This document shows, piece by piece, positions 103 to 10,742 of a DNA stretch of 47,667 nucleotides; the first letter of the stretch is position 1; the number at the start of each line of letters is the position of its first letter. Both the position numbers and the translations under genes were made by a program. Origin of the DNA: Actinomycetes bacterium (GTDB lineage: Bacteria; Actinomycetota; Acidimicrobiia; Acidimicrobiales; Bog-793); assembly GCA_021803215.1 (NCBI GenBank), contig JAJZLV010000125.1, forward strand, positions 1 through 47,667, read 5' to 3'. The notes under the pieces were generated by a model. The model was given only the letters and a program-made list of their open reading frames with translations, searched no databases and was not told the DNA's origin.

Positions 103-443
103 GAGGAGACCAGGCGCCCCCGCCGCTGGTAGCGCCTCAGTCGGAATCACGCGCGCTGAGAGGCCTAAGGGGATGGTCGGCTCCTGCAGCGATCTCTCCA
201 GGGCTGCTCGGTGAGCCGACCCGCACACACCAGGCCGCGTGTCAAAGATGAGTCTTCGTCCTGCGACGGCGAAGTGGACAGAGCACTGGGCCGGCTCTTC
301 GGCGCTGGTGATGCTCACGCGGTGGGTTTTGTGAGGGAGTCATCACTGGGAGATTCGGCCAGCAGCCGAAAGGCACGACGAACGGCCCGGGCGGAGACCA
401 GTAGCCCTGTCGTCGAGGGACCAGAGCACGTAACATCTTGGCC

Positions 444-857
444 ATGTCTTCGGCTTCGGAAGTTCTCGCAAAGGTTCCGATCTTCTCTATGCAGCCTCCC
501 AAGGAGATCGCGAAGCTCGCCCGTGCCGCCCACGAGCGCACCTTCGCGGCGGGGACCGTCATGAGCGAGGAAGAGGACTTCGGGAGCATCTTCACCGTCA
601 TCGTCGATGGGGAAGCGAGCGTCTCCGTAAGGGGCCGCCAGGCACGCACCTTGAAAGCAGGAGACTTCTTCGGCGAGATGTCGATCATCGACCGGTCTCC
701 TCGCTCGGCGACTGTCAAGGCAGAGACAGACTGCACCTGCCTCATGCTCACCCAGCCAGTCTTCCGCCCCTTTGCCGTCTCACATCCCGACACCATGTGG
801 GCGCTCTTGGAGCTGATGGTGAAGCGGGTACGCGAGAGCGAGGCGCGCCAGAGCTAG
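444..857 (+). CDS. Stand-alone cyclic nucleotide-binding domain protein
   Basis: VPIFS, GDFFGEMSIIDRSPRSATV phosphate-binding cassette; ends before any CRP HTH. ATG 444 preferred over TTG 438. Confidence 0.9.
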   Translation: MSSASEVLAKVPIFSMQPPKEIAKLARAAHERTFAAGTVMSEEEDFGSIFTVIVDGEASVSVRGRQARTLKAGDFFGEMSIIDRSPRSATVKAETDCTCLMLTQPVFRPFAVSHPDTMWALLELMVKRVRESEARQS

Positions 858-1732: not shown

Positions 1733-1873
1733 TCAGTAGCTACCGCCGTGCACGGTCGTCGCCGGGTGGTGGCCACCGCCATTCGAGCTGCAGCCGGCCG
1801 CCACAAGTCCGCCGCCCACGATGAGGGCGACCGCGAACAGCACCCGCCGGTAAATCGAGACGCGCCTTTGCAT
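1733..1873 (-). CDS. 46-aa putative lipoprotein
   Basis: MQRRVSIYRRVLFAVALIVGGGLVAAG-CSSNGGGHHPATTVHGGSY: basic N-region, hydrophobic core, lipobox-like VAAGC; purine-rich GAAAGGGA before ATG; 40 bp downstream of the MFS-ASST gene. Confidence 0.7.
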   Translation of the reverse strand: MQRRVSIYRRVLFAVALIVGGGLVAAGCSSNGGGHHPATTVHGGSY

Positions 1874-1913
1874 TCTGTTCCCTTTCAAACGATCGCTCCG
1901 GCCTGTCAAAAGC

Positions 1914-4913
1914 TCAGTGAAATTTCCTCTCGATCCCAAAGACCCGAGACGACCTGAGGACTCGGCCGGCCGAGTCGAGCGCCTCAACCTCGAAGCGCCT
2001 GGCCCTCGAGGAGACGAGCATCACGCTCTGGAAGCCTCTCTTCGGGGCAGTCAGCAGCTGGCGGAACCGGCCGCCCGGTCCTTCAGCCAGCACCCGCCAG
2101 CGCGCCACCTCGGTCGCCCCGTTCCAGCTGACGTAGATCTTCGTGCGATCCCCAGCTGGCCGGGCGACCGCCCTCGGGAGGGTGAGCGGCTTTCCCACCC
2201 AATGACGGACGAGGACGGCCCGGTACGACAGGTCCGGGCCGGGCAGCTGGGCATTGAAGATCAGCTTGCCCGAATGGGTGTACTCGGTCAGCTCTGGCTG
2301 GGCCCCCCAGCCGACGAGGACGTCACCGTTCGGCAGGAGCTGGGTGCTGCCCATGTAGGCGGCGTCGAAGCTCTTCCCGTAGACGTACTGCGCCTTCAAG
2401 GTGGCGGTGTGCGTCTTGCGGTTCAGGTGGAGGACGAGGGCACGAGAGGGGGCGGTCGCTCCCACGTAGGTGCCGGCTCCGCTGATCTGGCAGCAGTGGT
2501 CGTCGAACATGGTGATGGTCGACCGACCGTTCATGACGACGTCGTGCTGCCACTCGAACATGGCCTTCTTCGGCAACTTGAACGAGGAGTGCCTGCCTCC
2601 GAGCGTCCAGACGATCTTCTTGGTCTTCACGTTGATGTCGTAAGCCGCCCAGGTGTTGCGCATCGAGACGACGAGCGTGTCCTTGTGACCGAGGCTTATC
2701 GAGTTGACGTGGTAGGCGTCCCAGGGAAAGCCGTTCGTCTGCGGGATGGCGTGCGAGGCGGAGAGCGGGATGTGGTGGAGGGCGTTCCAGCTCCAGACGA
2801 GCTTTCCTGTCTTCAAGTCGTACTTCTGGACCGCCGAGTCCGTGATGGCACCGTTCTCGGTCCCGCCGTACCTGTAGAGGTTCATCGGGATGTTCTTGTT
2901 CGCCGTCACGTAGGCGTACTTGCCCTTGATGATGAACGAATGGAGGGTGAGCACCCAGCCGTCCTGGCCCTTGATCTTGGCGATCGTCTTGTAGTGCTCG
3001 TTCACCACGATGTACTCACCGGACTCGGTCGCCCCGGTCGGGGTGATGATCCCCTGCCACCAGGAGAGGACCGGCTTGCCCTCGTAGATCTGGGCTGCCA
3101 GGTCCGAGGCGACGTACTTGGGCGGCGTCGGCCTGAACCAGATCGGTGTCAGGTTCGGCGCCAACAGGAGCGGGCCGCTCTGACCGTCCATCGGGTGGGT
3201 GGTGAGGTTGTAGAAATTGCCGACCATGACATCGCCCGGAAGCGTCTTCCGGCTGGCCGTGCCCTCCGTGACCGTGATGCGCGGGGGATGGAGATTCGGG
3301 GCCGAGACGAAGTCGTAGGCCCCCTGCTTGCTCCAAGCCCCGATCGGAGCCCCCGCGCCCCCTGCCACACCGAAGTCGAGCGAGAGGAAGGCGACGATGA
3401 GAAGGCCGACCCCGATCGGGAGGCTGAGGCGAAGCTTCGGCTGGCTGCGGGCCGGGGCGTTGTCGGTCCTCGGCATGAACAAGAACGCCACCACCAAGGC
3501 GGCAAGGACGAAGCCGGCTCCTATCAGGTATGCGAGCCGGTAGCCGTCGGTGAGGGCCACTGAGGCCACCTTGTTCTCGCCGAAGAAGTGGGTGGTGAAC
3601 TGGGTGGCGAGCGAGATGAGGAGGGCTATCCCGAGCCCGCCGCCCGATTGCCGGGCGGTGTTGACGAGGCCCGAGACGAGCCCGGCCTGCTCGGGAGCCG
3701 AGCCCTGGATGGCCGCGATCGTCGAAGGGACGATCGAAAGGCCGATGCCGGCCGCCACGAGGAGGCCGGGAAGGACGATGTAGCCGACGGCGCTGCCGCT
3801 CGGCCCGATGCGGACGAAAAGGAGCATGCCGGTGAGCATCAGCAAGAGCCCGCTGACCAGGACCGGGCGGGGCCCGAAGCGGGACACCAGCCCGCCCGCC
3901 CGGTGGGCGGAGAACATGATCAAAAGCGCCATCGGCAAGAAGGCGAGCCCGGTGGCGAGCGGCGTGAGGCCGAGCACCTGCTGGAGGTAGAGAGAGCTCA
4001 CGTACCACATGGGAAAGAGCGCTGCGCTGAACAAGAGAACGACGGCGTTCGCCACGAGCACCGGCCGGGTGAGCGAGCGGAACGGGATGAGCGGCTTTCT
4101 CGCGAGGTGGGTCTCGACGTAGCCGAAGACCCCCGACAGGACGAGTCCGCCCGCTATCGGCCCGATGGCGAGCGGGGCGAGCCAGTTCGAGTTGCCGGCG
4201 TTCACGACCCCGTAGACGATGAGGACCAACGATGCCGTGAGCAGGAGCGCCCCGAAGAGGTCGAAGTCGCTCCTCTCGCTCTCCTTCCTGCGCTCGGCCA
4301 CCACCGCGAGAGCGATGAAGGCGGCGATGATCCCGATCGGCGGGTTTATGAGAAGCACCCAGCGCCAGCCGAGGCCGGAGGTGAGCACCCCGCCGAGCAG
4401 TGTGCCGGCCGCTCCCCCGGCACCGTTCATGGCACCCCAAAGAGCGATCGCCTTGTGACGCTTCGGCCCTGCCTCGAACGAGTAGGTCACGATGGCGAGC
4501 GACGAGGCGGCCATGAGGGCCCCCGAGAGGCCTTGCACGCCGCGGGCGACGACGAGGAGAGTCTGGGTCGGCGCCATGCCGCCCGCCAGCGAGGTGAGCG
4601 AGAACAAAAGGAGGGCGGCGACGAAGAGCCGGCGCTGCCCGAAGTGGTCGCTCGCCCGGCCGCCGAACATCAAAAAGCCGGCGAAGGCGATGGCGTAGGC
4701 GTCCACCACCCACTGCAAGCCGACGGCCGAGAAGCCGAGGCTCGACTGGATGGAGGGGAGGGCGACGTTGACGATGCTCAGGTCCAAGATGACCATGAAC
4801 TGAGCCACGCAGCAGACGACGAGGAGCCAGCGGCTCCTTCCTTCGAAGCTGATCCCTCCCGCCTTGGTCTCCGGCCCGCCGCCGCCTCGGCGCTCGCCGA
4901 CTTCGGTGCTCAC
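1914..4913 (-). CDS. DHA2 (EmrB/QacA-like) MFS transporter fused to a C-terminal arylsulfotransferase (ASST)-like domain
   Basis: N-half: MVILDLSIVNVALPSI, WVVDAYAIAFAG, GGRASDHFGQRR, WRWVLLINPPIG. C-half: APNLHPP, WDAYHVNSI, WTLGG, FEWQHD, MFDD, GSTQLLPNG, YVSWNGATEV. GTG 4913 overlaps the upstream stop (GTGA). Confidence 0.9.
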   Translation of the reverse strand: MSTEVGERRGGGGPETKAGGISFEGRSRWLLVVCCVAQFMVILDLSIVNVALPSIQSSLGFSAVGLQWVVDAYAIAFAGFLMFGGRASDHFGQRRLFVAALLLFSLTSLAGGMAPTQTLLVVARGVQGLSGALMAASSLAIVTYSFEAGPKRHKAIALWGAMNGAGGAAGTLLGGVLTSGLGWRWVLLINPPIGIIAAFIALAVVAERRKESERSDFDLFGALLLTASLVLIVYGVVNAGNSNWLAPLAIGPIAGGLVLSGVFGYVETHLARKPLIPFRSLTRPVLVANAVVLLFSAALFPMWYVSSLYLQQVLGLTPLATGLAFLPMALLIMFSAHRAGGLVSRFGPRPVLVSGLLLMLTGMLLFVRIGPSGSAVGYIVLPGLLVAAGIGLSIVPSTIAAIQGSAPEQAGLVSGLVNTARQSGGGLGIALLISLATQFTTHFFGENKVASVALTDGYRLAYLIGAGFVLAALVVAFLFMPRTDNAPARSQPKLRLSLPIGVGLLIVAFLSLDFGVAGGAGAPIGAWSKQGAYDFVSAPNLHPPRITVTEGTASRKTLPGDVMVGNFYNLTTHPMDGQSGPLLLAPNLTPIWFRPTPPKYVASDLAAQIYEGKPVLSWWQGIITPTGATESGEYIVVNEHYKTIAKIKGQDGWVLTLHSFIIKGKYAYVTANKNIPMNLYRYGGTENGAITDSAVQKYDLKTGKLVWSWNALHHIPLSASHAIPQTNGFPWDAYHVNSISLGHKDTLVVSMRNTWAAYDINVKTKKIVWTLGGRHSSFKLPKKAMFEWQHDVVMNGRSTITMFDDHCCQISGAGTYVGATAPSRALVLHLNRKTHTATLKAQYVYGKSFDAAYMGSTQLLPNGDVLVGWGAQPELTEYTHSGKLIFNAQLPGPDLSYRAVLVRHWVGKPLTLPRAVARPAGDRTKIYVSWNGATEVARWRVLAEGPGGRFRQLLTAPKRGFQSVMLVSSRARRFEVEALDSAGRVLRSSRVFGIERKFH

Positions 4914-5620
4914 GAGGTCTCGGCCGCGACCTCTCCCGCTCGCCACTCCGACAGGACAGCCAGAGCGGAATCGATGATGCGATCGGCGAAGGTGGCGGAG
5001 TCGTTGACGCGGGGGAAGGGCTCCTGCGGCACGGGCAGCTCGAGGAACTCACAAAGAGGCTCCCAGCCCTCTGCCGGGTTCCAGACGAGCAGGCGGTCGG
5101 CCGGAACGGTCGCTTTCACCCCGGCGTTGTACTCCTCCATGGCGTGGGCCATGTAACCGGGATCGGCGTCGTCCGGGTCCTCCGGCATGAGCCCGCTCTT
5201 CTGCCACATAGAGCGCATCATCTCGAGGTAGCCATCCCAGGCAGGGTCGATCTTCGCCCGGGCGCTCGAGAGATCCCGCATGAGGAGGTCGCCGTAGAAC
5301 ATCCCCCAGATCGTGTCGGTCATGCTGCGCTCCCAGCTCTCGGGCTGGCGCACGCTCAACAGCACCTTGGCATCCGGGTAGAACTCGATGAGCTCCCTGT
5401 AATAGAAGGCCCCCGGCCAGTCGACGGTCGCCTGGTACCCGGCAAAGACGCTCTCGAAGTCCCCGCCGCCGCTCTCGAAGAGCGACTGCCACTTCTCTGC
5501 AAGGCTCAAGTCGCCGAGGACGTTTACCATGTGATAGCAGGGCCCGAGCCCGAGCTTTTCGAGCGCCTCTTTCTGCGACAAGGTCGCAGTGCGCGGCAGG
5601 CCGGCTCCGATCAGCTTCAT
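4910..5620 (-). CDS. Sulfotransferase family protein (Sulfotransfer_4-like, probably PAPS-dependent)
   Basis: MKLIGAGLPRTATLS, GPCYHM, ATVDWP, YPDAKVLLSVR, VPADRLLV, GWEPLCEFL, PFPRVN; RBS GGAGGGG before ATG 5620. Confidence 0.9.
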   Translation of the reverse strand: MKLIGAGLPRTATLSQKEALEKLGLGPCYHMVNVLGDLSLAEKWQSLFESGGGDFESVFAGYQATVDWPGAFYYRELIEFYPDAKVLLSVRQPESWERSMTDTIWGMFYGDLLMRDLSSARAKIDPAWDGYLEMMRSMWQKSGLMPEDPDDADPGYMAHAMEEYNAGVKATVPADRLLVWNPAEGWEPLCEFLELPVPQEPFPRVNDSATFADRIIDSALAVLSEWRAGEVAAETS

Positions 5621-8744: not shown

Positions 8745-10742
8745 CTACGAGGTGGCGGGCACCAACAGGCAGCGGCAGCCGGGATGGACGGGCGGGTGCA
8801 GCTGGCCGGTCGGGAACTCCTCTCCGACCGCCACCGGCCCGGCGAGGGCGTTGTCGTCGCAGTCCGGGCAGGGCTGCCCATCGTCGTCGACCACCCAGCG
8901 GGCCGCCGTGCCGGCCCCTCCCGCCACGGCGCCCTTCGAGAAGGACTTGACGGCGAAGTCGCCGGCCGCCTGCTCGACCCTCTTTCGCCGCCACTCCCGG
9001 TAGGAGGCTCCGGCTGCCTCGGTGGCTCCCTCGGAGAGGTCGCTCACCTCTTCGAGGGCCTCCTCTAGGCGGTGGCGCAGCAGCCCGCTCACCTCGGCCG
9101 CCAGCTCGGAGGCGATCTCGCTCCCGGCGCTGGCAGGCGAGCCGTCGGCCGGCTCGGCTCCGGAGAGCCAGCGGTGCCCGAGACTCCAGGCGTCGGCCAA
9201 GAGCTTGGCCGTCGCCTCTTCGATCCTCGAGCGCTGGGCCTCTGCGGGGAGAAGCTTTTCCAGCTCGGGCCGGCCGGAGGAATGCCGGATGGCGTCGAGG
9301 AGGAGGTTCTGGTCGTCTTGCAGGGCCCGCTTCAAGGCTCGCGAGAGCCTGCCGGTGACCGGCCCGAGCAGCTCGGCTCGCCGGGTGAGAGCCGCCTCGT
9401 CGTCGCTCGGGAGCTCTTCGGCCTCGGCCGCGCCCGGCGCCACCGGGGTCTCGGCCCCCGCCTTGCCGGCCTCGTCGAGCTCGACCGGCGGGAGCTCGTC
9501 GCTCTCGCGGACGTCCGCCTCGTGGGCCGAGTGGATCCCGAGCACACCCTCGCCTGGGAGCTCCCCCTCGCTCGCTGGCCGGCCCGGCCGCCCCTTTCTC
9601 CTCGCCGGGCTGGTCGGCTCGGCGGCCTTCAGATCAGGCCCTATCTCGTCGGAGGGCTGTCCGGCCGGCTCCGGGCCGGCCGCGGCCTCCTTCCGCCCCG
9701 GCTCTCCACCGAGAGGGGTCGGCTCGGCCAGAGCCGCCTCGCCGCCCGGCTCTCCTCCGGGCTCGGCCTCGTTCTCTCTCCGGTCGGCTCGGATGCGGGC
9801 GAAGAGCTCCTCGACACTTCTCCGTGAGCTGAGGTGGTCCTCTTCGGTCGACTCCTCCTCCGAGTCCGCCTCCTCGTAGCTCTCCGCCCCGGCAGGCTCT
9901 CTCGGGCGGACCGCCTCGGAGAGCTCCTCTGCTGCCTCGAGCCCGAGAGCTCCCTCTGCGAGCAGGCCCTCGTCGGCGCCGACCACCGCCTCGAGGTCGG
10001 AGTCGTCGGAGCTCTGCTCGGCCGCCTCGCCGGCAGCCGCCGCCGCCACCCGGGCGTCGTGCTCGGCGCTCGCCACCCGCTCAAGCAGCTCCCCGACGGC
10101 CGAGCCGACCGACTCGACCACCTCGATGAGGAAGTCCCGCCCGGCCCGCAGCTCCTCGAGCTGCACCCGGAGGCCCCGGCGCTTCTCGGCGAGATCTCCG
10201 AGGATCTCTCCCCGAAGCGCCTTCGCCTCGCGCACGATCCGGCGGCACTCCGCCTTGGTCGCCTGCAAGAGGGAGACCGCCTCCTGGCGGGCCGACTCGG
10301 TGACCGCCTCGGCCTCGAGCTGCGAGGCCTCGATGATGGCGGTCGCCTCCGCCTCGGCCGCCTCCTGGCGAGAGGCCAGGACCGACTCGGCCGCTCCGAC
10401 TATCTCGGCCGCCCTCGCCTCGGCCTTCGCCACCACCTCCTGGGCGGCGTCGTGGGCCGCCTGCAGGATCTTGGCCGTCTCGACTCCGACCGCCCTCATC
10501 AAGGTGGCCTCGTCCAGCTCGGGCTCGGCCGCCCGGCGCTCGGCCTCCGCCACCTTGCGGCGGAGCGCCTGCTCTCTGTCGAGCATCTCCCGCACCTCGC
10601 CGGCGAGCGCCTGCAGGTACTGGCGGACGGCCTCTTGCTCGAAGCCGCGCCGGCCGGCCGGGAAGGAGTGCCGGGAGATCTCCTCCGGGTGAAAACCCGT
10701 GCGGGTGCTGATCGCCACCATCAATGGCTCTTCGGGCGTCAT
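8745..10742 (-). CDS. DivIVA-domain coiled-coil protein with C-terminal Cys/His motif
   Basis: N-terminal HPEEISRHSFPAGRRGFEQEAVRQYL resembles DivIVA; Ala/Glu coiled coil; C-terminal CPDC...HPPVHPGCRC. Confidence 0.8.
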   Translation of the reverse strand: MTPEEPLMVAISTRTGFHPEEISRHSFPAGRRGFEQEAVRQYLQALAGEVREMLDREQALRRKVAEAERRAAEPELDEATLMRAVGVETAKILQAAHDAAQEVVAKAEARAAEIVGAAESVLASRQEAAEAEATAIIEASQLEAEAVTESARQEAVSLLQATKAECRRIVREAKALRGEILGDLAEKRRGLRVQLEELRAGRDFLIEVVESVGSAVGELLERVASAEHDARVAAAAAGEAAEQSSDDSDLEAVVGADEGLLAEGALGLEAAEELSEAVRPREPAGAESYEEADSEEESTEEDHLSSRRSVEELFARIRADRRENEAEPGGEPGGEAALAEPTPLGGEPGRKEAAAGPEPAGQPSDEIGPDLKAAEPTSPARRKGRPGRPASEGELPGEGVLGIHSAHEADVRESDELPPVELDEAGKAGAETPVAPGAAEAEELPSDDEAALTRRAELLGPVTGRLSRALKRALQDDQNLLLDAIRHSSGRPELEKLLPAEAQRSRIEEATAKLLADAWSLGHRWLSGAEPADGSPASAGSEIASELAAEVSGLLRHRLEEALEEVSDLSEGATEAAGASYREWRRKRVEQAAGDFAVKSFSKGAVAGGAGTAARWVVDDDGQPCPDCDDNALAGPVAVGEEFPTGQLHPPVHPGCRCLLVPATS

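Follow-up and report, generated by a model that had tools for sequence, protein, structure and literature searches.

A tyrosine-ended micro-lipoprotein linked to exporter–ASST fusions in actinobacteria, a candidate membrane-tethered sulfate carrier

ASTs work by a ping-pong mechanism in which sulfate passes from one phenol to another via a sulfo-His, and they sulfate Tyr peptides in vitro; for most ASSTs neither the natural donors nor the natural acceptors are known (excerpt of PMC13426309). In the synthesis of caprazamycins, the ASST Cpz4 is supplied by a small shuttle that has been loaded by a PAPS enzyme (excerpt of PMC4257720). A shuttle of another kind has been proposed for acyl groups, which would be carried between enzymes by the C-terminal Tyr of the DltX microprotein or of a tail fused to PatA (excerpt of PMC12148441). 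Here we describe a short lipoprotein with a C-terminal Tyr, the Tyr arm, encoded next to an ASST that is fused to an MFS exporter. Searches of the open-licence literature returned no description of the fusion, of the arm or of a sulfate-carrier role for Tyr.

The arm gene and its neighbours

The window, that is the whole stretch of 47,667 nucleotides analysed, carries three consecutive genes on its minus strand: Sulfotransfer_4, an MFS_1–Arylsulfotran_2 fusion and the arm, which starts 40 nt past the stop codon of the fusion (Table 1). The translated arm has a basic N-terminus, a hydrophobic stretch and the lipobox VAAG followed by Cys28, and thus shows the Sec/SPII features (basic n-region, hydrophobic h-region and lipobox Cys) at the level of motifs; from the lipobox we infer lipidation at Cys28. 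The mature part comprises 19 aa with three His and a C-terminal Tyr. A Shine-Dalgarno-like GAAAGGG precedes the ATG by 6 nt, and the GC3 of the gene (0.83-0.84) is near the genome mean of 0.86. When all six frames were given a synonymous-codon score, the arm frame was the best (+3.5 bits); the runner-up reached +1.1 bits but holds two stops, and the remaining four scored -10 to -21. Translation, lipobox and codon use therefore confirm the original prediction of a micro-lipoprotein with a 19-aa mature peptide ending in Tyr.

Table 1. Features of the arm gene and of the two genes that precede it on the minus strand of the window
Feature	Position	Strand	Basis
Micro-lipoprotein gene (Tyr arm), 46 aa	1733..1873	-	ORF translation, codon use, homologues
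Predicted SPII signal peptide, residues 1-27, ending in lipobox VAAG	1793..1873	-	motif inference
Predicted lipidated Cys28 and Gly/Ser/Thr-rich flexible linker	1739..1792	-	sequence; composition of short arms
Tyr46, terminal, invariant; proposed sulfate carrier	1736..1738	-	alignment of short arms; filter counts
Shine-Dalgarno-like GAAAGGG	1880..1886	-	sequence
MFS_1 exporter fused to Arylsulfotran_2 (Cpz4-like ASST), 999 aa from GTG	1914..4913	-	Pfam
Extra hydrophobic helix between MFS and ASST, following a basic loop	3366..3422	-	hydropathy
ASST domain, invariant His130, His207, Asn209, Arg224, His262 (domain numbering)	1917..3329	-	alignment, fold comparison
PAPS-dependent sulfotransferase, Sulfotransfer_4, no signal peptide	4910..5620	-	Pfam E 1.9e-61

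A Pfam scan of the 46-aa protein matched no family, including the Lipoprotein_15 repeat domain, and single-sequence peptide searches of 92 genomes of the window's family returned only weak signal-peptide matches. The exact peptide sequence was absent from the protein cluster collection searched and present in the ESM Atlas, where the best look-alikes score at most 0.85. Three RNA contig sets yielded short pieces of relatives and nothing covering the peptide, and terminator-like hairpins 3' of the gene were at chance level (1 found, 0.6 expected). What makes the ORF more than a chance one is the presence of homologous arms at other fusion loci, described below. We consider it a real gene, encoding what the comparison indicates to be a conserved accessory lipoprotein of an extracytoplasmic sulfation module.

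The GTG start of the fusion overlaps the Sulfotransfer_4 stop codon (GTGA), and the fusion frame stays open to position 4946. Among 7998 scored candidates, 1765 fusion homologues were found at E <= 1e-150; those fusion loci that have titles belong mostly to Solirubrobacterales and Acidimicrobiia, with some Streptosporangiaceae. The fold of the ASST domain agrees with that of Cpz4 (9kf6/9kf4; TM 0.88-0.89, 32% identity). The five residues listed in Table 1 do not vary among 64 fused ASST domains, and in an alignment they match identical residues in the Cpz4 structure 9kf4; by motif and order they may be equated with His252, His356, Asn358, Arg374 and His436 of the E. coli AST (excerpt of PMC13426309). 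As a separate observation, the adjacent Cys279-Cys280 (window about 2490-2495) are invariant in the 64 domains too, and a vicinal disulfide near the active site is possible. Hydropathy of the MFS part resolved only 12 hydrophobic peaks; we take this part to have the 14-helix DHA2 topology. Because of this assumed topology and the extra hydrophobic helix after the basic loop, the fused ASST domain is predicted to face the outside of the membrane.

The closest PDB matches of the Sulfotransfer_4 enzyme (hereafter SULT) are SgdX2 (8y9p) and 9kf1, and its nine PDB hits also include schistosome-type enzymes; by family and by these small-molecule SULT matches it is not of the TPST type. The window's genome encodes cysD-cysN-cysC and two further ASSTs, one with a lipobox and the other with a twin-arginine-like start. 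A search for type III PKS (PF00195) gave no match in this genome, which is 95.5% complete.

Elsewhere in the window, a tRNA-Met lies at the contig end (8-84, minus strand) and a gene for a stand-alone cNMP-binding protein at 438-857 (plus strand), both 0.9-1.7 kb downstream of the module. Since the module is patchy in the window's family (6 of 92 genomes), it may have been acquired near the tRNA-Met. At 8745-10742 (minus strand), upstream of a UPF0182 gene, a 665-aa DivIVA-domain protein is encoded whose C-terminus gives a weak Phage_Mu_F-like match (E 0.009, under the cut-off).

Tyr arms at fusion loci and their scaffolds

We searched 165 loci (5 from relatives, 80 genome contigs and 80 metagenome contigs) with a blind filter, which requires a lipobox followed by a mature part that is of low complexity as far as the stop codon, and which ignores the last residue. 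It returned 107 matches, four of which run off the locus. Among the 103 closed ones, 97 end in Tyr and 93 in GY, spread over 96 loci, and at a looser setting Tyr was the last residue in 107 of 122. The Tyr endings observed were GY, SY, NY or YY. Applied to the window's genome, the strict filter gave three matches, with the window's arm as the only one ending in Tyr.

Because some loci are duplicates, the 124 intact fusions were collapsed at 90% identity into 91 clusters. Of these, 69 have flanks of 1.5 kb or more in both directions. The blind filter found an arm in 49 of the 69, and a second, Tyr-directed and hence not blind, look brought the number to 64 and, with L176, to 65, although such counts overstate independence because the loci are related. 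The four well-flanked clusters without an arm after this look were L033, L055, L155 and L177. L033 is a second fusion copy, the other copy in the same genome having an arm, and in L055 a typical arm start is followed by a frame that continues, perhaps because of a frameshift. The link between arm and fusion is kept while the arm varies in position and orientation, being downstream, convergent or divergent. The proposal that a lipid-anchored (by prediction) peptide is tied to the neighbouring ASST is thus borne out by arms at homologous fusion loci. The short lipobox ORFs with terminal Tyr that the original prediction would have us look for at such loci are present, and the Tyr is their conserved feature.

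In an alignment of 17 short arms, only the Cys, the aligned Gly-2 and the terminal Tyr are invariant; G, T and S make up 74% of the 15 distinct short arms. Among 97 distinct arms the Tyr codon is TAC in 81 and TAT in 16, and the stop codon TGA in 51, TAG in 35 and TAA in 11. Both vary synonymously, and therefore the constraint acts on the protein.

The terminal Tyr was found on four scaffolds. Short arms of 18-25 aa, like that of the window, lie downstream or convergent (a), whereas long disordered arms of 102-163 aa, mostly with a QGY end, are divergent and upstream (b). At some fusion loci a Lipoprotein_15 protein with a Tyr tail replaces the arm (c), and at six loci without a separate arm, one of them (L106) frameshifted, a Cys-looped C-G-x-x-C-G-Y tail is fused to a Tat-lipoprotein ASST (d). 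Tails of this last type occur on 21 of 120 homologues of the Tat-lipoprotein ASST, among the matches listed, and three more stand-alone ASSTs end in SY, each beside a separate arm. In a FastTree tree of the fusions, which lacks support values and is descriptive only, the scaffold types sit in separate regions, with type (c) recurring at several positions. Conserved across scaffolds are only the predicted lipid anchor, a flexible linker, whose length varies from 18 to 163 aa, and the terminal (G)Y. In an AlphaFold2 model of the tail-bearing ASST of L083 the tail had pLDDT of 56 and 39 and no docking was visible. A complex prediction of the ASST domain with peptide residues 17-46 gave a score of 0.03 (mark 0.32) with controls not folded, and speaks neither for nor against binding.

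The commonest neighbour family of the fusion is a CysQ-like Inositol_P (18 of 91 clusters; the name CysQ is our inference). Several fusion proteins in databases (P0045, P0046, P0056, P0059, P0066 and others) start with about 80 extra residues that appear to be an antisense reading of a divergent arm gene; with database starts overrunning the arm in this way, gene callers hide it. At loci where an ASST gene is followed by a separate MFS gene (L210-L212, L214, L216), no Tyr arm was detected in the flanks examined, and the separate MFS is about 60-65% identical to the fused one. Two further small proteins recur. A conserved small membrane protein with a terminal KY motif lies 1-3 kb upstream of the fusion in one Solirubrobacterales clade (L039, L041, L042, L044, L045, L048, L053, L058, L066, L114, L138, L153), and a second conserved small lipoprotein, with a GIQC end, lies upstream of the arm in one clade (L038:2090-2488, L043:1419-1826, L113:2111-2509).

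Occurrence of arms and Tyr tails with and without the module

As a control set we used the 92 genomes of the window's family. The fusion occurs in six, Sulfotransfer_4 in the same six and in genome G108, and an ASST of any kind in 34. A short Tyr arm was present in 6 of 6 genomes with the fusion vs 1 of 86 without it, a contrast that is overstated because the genomes are related and incomplete. A profile of the 17 short arms gave 78 matches at E <= 1e-6, with 73 candidates scored per genome. Seven of them are training sequences and cover all six fusion genomes; the other 71 include one short Tyr-ending lipoprotein (in G027) and one Tyr-tailed Lipoprotein_15, the remainder being starts of longer lipoproteins with ends mostly unread. 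Fusion genome G114 has no arm on its fusion contig and two arms on other contigs, one beside a CysQ-like Inositol_P gene; both were found before they entered the profile. Of the 34 ASST-bearing genomes, 28 have no fusion but carry ASSTs of the Tat or lipoprotein type; no short arm was seen in any of these 28, so that those ASSTs do not need the relay proposed below. SULT and two or more other ASST matches are present in each of the 11 fusion genomes checked; these include five in addition to the six of the family, in which SULT is not adjacent but is encoded elsewhere, together with 4-10 ASST matches.

Searches by DNA pattern gave matches at background level with a first, loose pattern. A tightened one, which recovers only three of seven known arms, gave 72 matches, 32 of them in frame and read, with three true arms, all in fusion genomes. 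An order-wide profile search (251 genomes, 26 candidates each) returned at least 2386 matches and is not usable as a clean control. Contig C40 of G108 (L473) holds two SULT4 genes (34-35% identity), one of which lies 11 kb away from a pair of ASSTs, and no fusion or arm within the 20 kb read.

Tyr tails are also found outside the module. Among the 30 best-scoring of more than 300 Lipoprotein_15 (PF03640) matches (L434-L463), 17 end in a Gly/Ser/Thr linker plus Tyr, and the tail is carried by 12 of the 17 from genomes with ASSTs and by 5 of the 13 from genomes without (p = 0.14). This suggests, as far as sequence comparison goes, that a C-terminal aromatic end is a general tag on Lipoprotein_15 proteins. 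Most of the Lipoprotein_15 genes examined have unrelated neighbours. Since Tyr tails are often present where the module is absent, GY tails serve, or once served, a broader purpose, and a GY tag that already existed may have been taken over by the module. Three more of the 30 proteins end in SGW or GWSG. The gene of the G027 lipoprotein (L230:1486-1638), which ends in IAY, is immediately upstream of one for a DUF2142 membrane protein, and no ASST match was found in G027. The idea that Tyr arms also serve DUF2142 membrane proteins was rejected, since an arm was found at 0 of 30 other DUF2142 loci.

A proposed role for the terminal Tyr and its relation to known systems

By analogy with the shuttles described above, the C-terminal Tyr of the arm would be a sulfate carrier that is tethered to the membrane and can be recharged, and the three genes would form a module that sulfates outside the membrane, a proposal to which we give an even chance of being right. 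The cytoplasmic Sulfotransfer_4 would sulfate a small phenol using PAPS, and the MFS domain would export the aryl sulfate to its own fused, outward-facing ASST domain. This domain would then use its catalytic His to pass the sulfate to the phenol ring of Tyr in the arm, and the small phenol would be freed. The tethered Tyr-O-sulfate, unable to diffuse off, would serve as aryl-sulfate donor for the cell's other exported ASSTs, which, once charged, would sulfate their own envelope acceptors. The observations brought together here are the ORF, its linkage to the neighbouring genes, an anchor and a Tyr that do not vary, scaffolds that can stand in for one another, the intact catalytic residues and the co-occurrence of SULT and extra ASSTs. 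These comparative data favour a carrier over an acceptor, because a carrier needs only a tether, reach and a phenol, which are the conserved parts; likewise, a tail fused to a second ASST fits a carrier serving that enzyme better than a product. Whether the scheme extends to a general actinobacterial trans-membrane pathway, from aryl-sulfate export through a sulfotyrosine arm to surface ASSTs, with GY tails as a portable carrier tag, is a more tentative matter, and we lean slightly against it.

If the Tyr were instead an end acceptor, the cell would present or release the sulfo-Tyr lipopeptide, which would act as a signal, an adhesin or a surface charge in the manner of RaxX. The linkage of arm and fusion and the invariance of Tyr would be equally expected then, and ASTs do accept Tyr peptides (excerpt of PMC13426309); moreover, 43 of the 107 arms have two Tyr, many long arms bear two GY motifs, and G114 has two arms. 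A tail on the ASST enzyme itself, as in six loci, would nevertheless be odd for a product, and 105 of the 107 arms lack an acidic residue in the last 8 aa, unlike most sulfo-Tyr interaction sites (excerpt of PMC9372746). In addition, a scan of the commoner neighbour clusters (32 of 40 picks) showed no peptidase, receptor or peptidase-containing ABC/T1SS family, and no core is conserved around the Tyr beyond the G, on linkers of such variable length. We therefore hold an end-acceptor role to be unlikely. The lack of a core, the variable linker, a tail that can be fused to an ASST and a SULT that is not a TPST also tell against the RiPP-like peptide, in the RaxX sense, of the original prediction. 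Sulfation of the Tyr before export, by the cytoplasmic SULT as by RaxST on RaxX, with one sulfate delivered per lipopeptide to the outside ASSTs, would agree with a SULT that is co-distributed and usually adjacent, and RaxST does work in the cytoplasm (excerpt of PMC9372746). It seems very improbable, given that the nearest matches of the SULT are small-molecule enzymes (SgdX2, schistosome SULT), that the fused MFS would be left without a job and that one protein per sulfate would be costly.

An unsulfated Tyr could also dock in the ASST or MFS pocket, making the tail a non-covalent subunit that acts as plug, activator or stabiliser. An invariant terminal aromatic on a tether, strictly linked to the fusion, fits any docking role, but the replacement of Tyr by Phe or Trp in 0 of 103 closed matches points to the hydroxyl, and four unrelated scaffolds serve; we think such docking quite unlikely. 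Slightly less probable still is that GY tails are general to actinobacterial surface lipoproteins and have a role unrelated to Tyr sulfate, and that the module takes up such a lipoprotein on other grounds, with linker glycans, for instance, as the acceptor of Cpz4-like ASSTs that prefer sugars. The glycans on a Thr/Ser linker would presumably come from O-mannosylation. The Tyr tails of Lipoprotein_15 proteins, including those from ASST-free genomes, the G027 orphan, the Thr/Ser-rich linkers and the preference of Cpz4 for sugar hydroxyls (excerpt of PMC13426309) would all be in keeping with it. Against it, naked arms track the fusion in the window's family, the ASST-fused tail is short, Cys-looped and Thr-poor and still keeps its Tyr, and a Tyr end is found on only 1 of 52 lipobox ORFs of any kind in the window's genome. 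Metal binding by a His-rich mature peptide, the other role considered in the original prediction, is suggested by the three His in the 19 aa of the window's arm; as the His residues are not conserved (0-3 per short arm, none in 9 of the 15 distinct ones, one in 4, and no conserved His column), we hardly believe in it. The arm is thus best described as an uncharacterised lipoprotein for which the carrier option of the original prediction is the best reading, its RiPP and metal options being weak.

The module offers a genetically encoded and testable donor route for ASSTs. If the carrier proposal is true, sulfotyrosine would act as a catalytic carrier intermediate as well as an interaction mark, Tyr shuttles would be a logic common to envelope acylation and sulfation, and uncultured actinobacteria, abundant in soil and peat, would be able to sulfate their surface by a route so far unrecognised. 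The module could also yield a PAPS-free, recyclable route to Tyr-sulfated peptides.

Among known systems, RaxX/RaxST of Xanthomonas likewise places a small Tyr peptide beside a sulfotransferase and an exporter (excerpts of PMC11143521 and PMC9372746). As described there, RaxX is a peptide whose leader is cleaved off, whose core is conserved and whose Tyr is internal, and it depends on a TPST-type enzyme using PAPS in the cytoplasm and on a peptidase-containing T1SS, whereas the arm is a lipoprotein with a terminal Tyr and no core in a module of ASST and MFS_1. With Cpz6/Cpz8/Cpz4 (excerpts of PMC4257720 and PMC13426309) the locus shares a PAPS-dependent SULT and a Cpz4-fold, PAPS-independent ASST with intact catalytic residues. 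As its shuttle the Cpz pathway uses a diffusible pyrone from a type III PKS, an enzyme not found in the window's genome, and in these excerpts Cpz4 is not exporter-fused and no peptide arm is described, whereas the window's ASST is fused to an MFS. As in DltX/PatA (excerpt of PMC12148441), a membrane-tethered C-terminal Tyr exists in separate and enzyme-fused forms. There, acyl esters are carried between an MBOAT and an SGNH enzyme by an FxYxxF motif on a transmembrane helix; the arm, which has no homology to it, has a terminal (G)Y and a lipobox anchor, with sulfate as the proposed cargo and MFS_1, Arylsulfotran_2 and Sulfotransfer_4 as partners. A protein-borne sulfate carrier would be the sulfuryl counterpart of the DltX acyl shuttle, an analogy whose chances we put a little short of even. 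The Gly/Ser/Thr linker and GY end are common in Lipoprotein_15 proteins (17 of the 30 with the best scores), which stand in for the arm at some fusion loci, but the window's peptide is without the PF03640 domain. The arm would thus stand outside the RaxX class, the DltX family and Lipoprotein_15 and, if our reading is right, would work like DltX in a Cpz-type relay.
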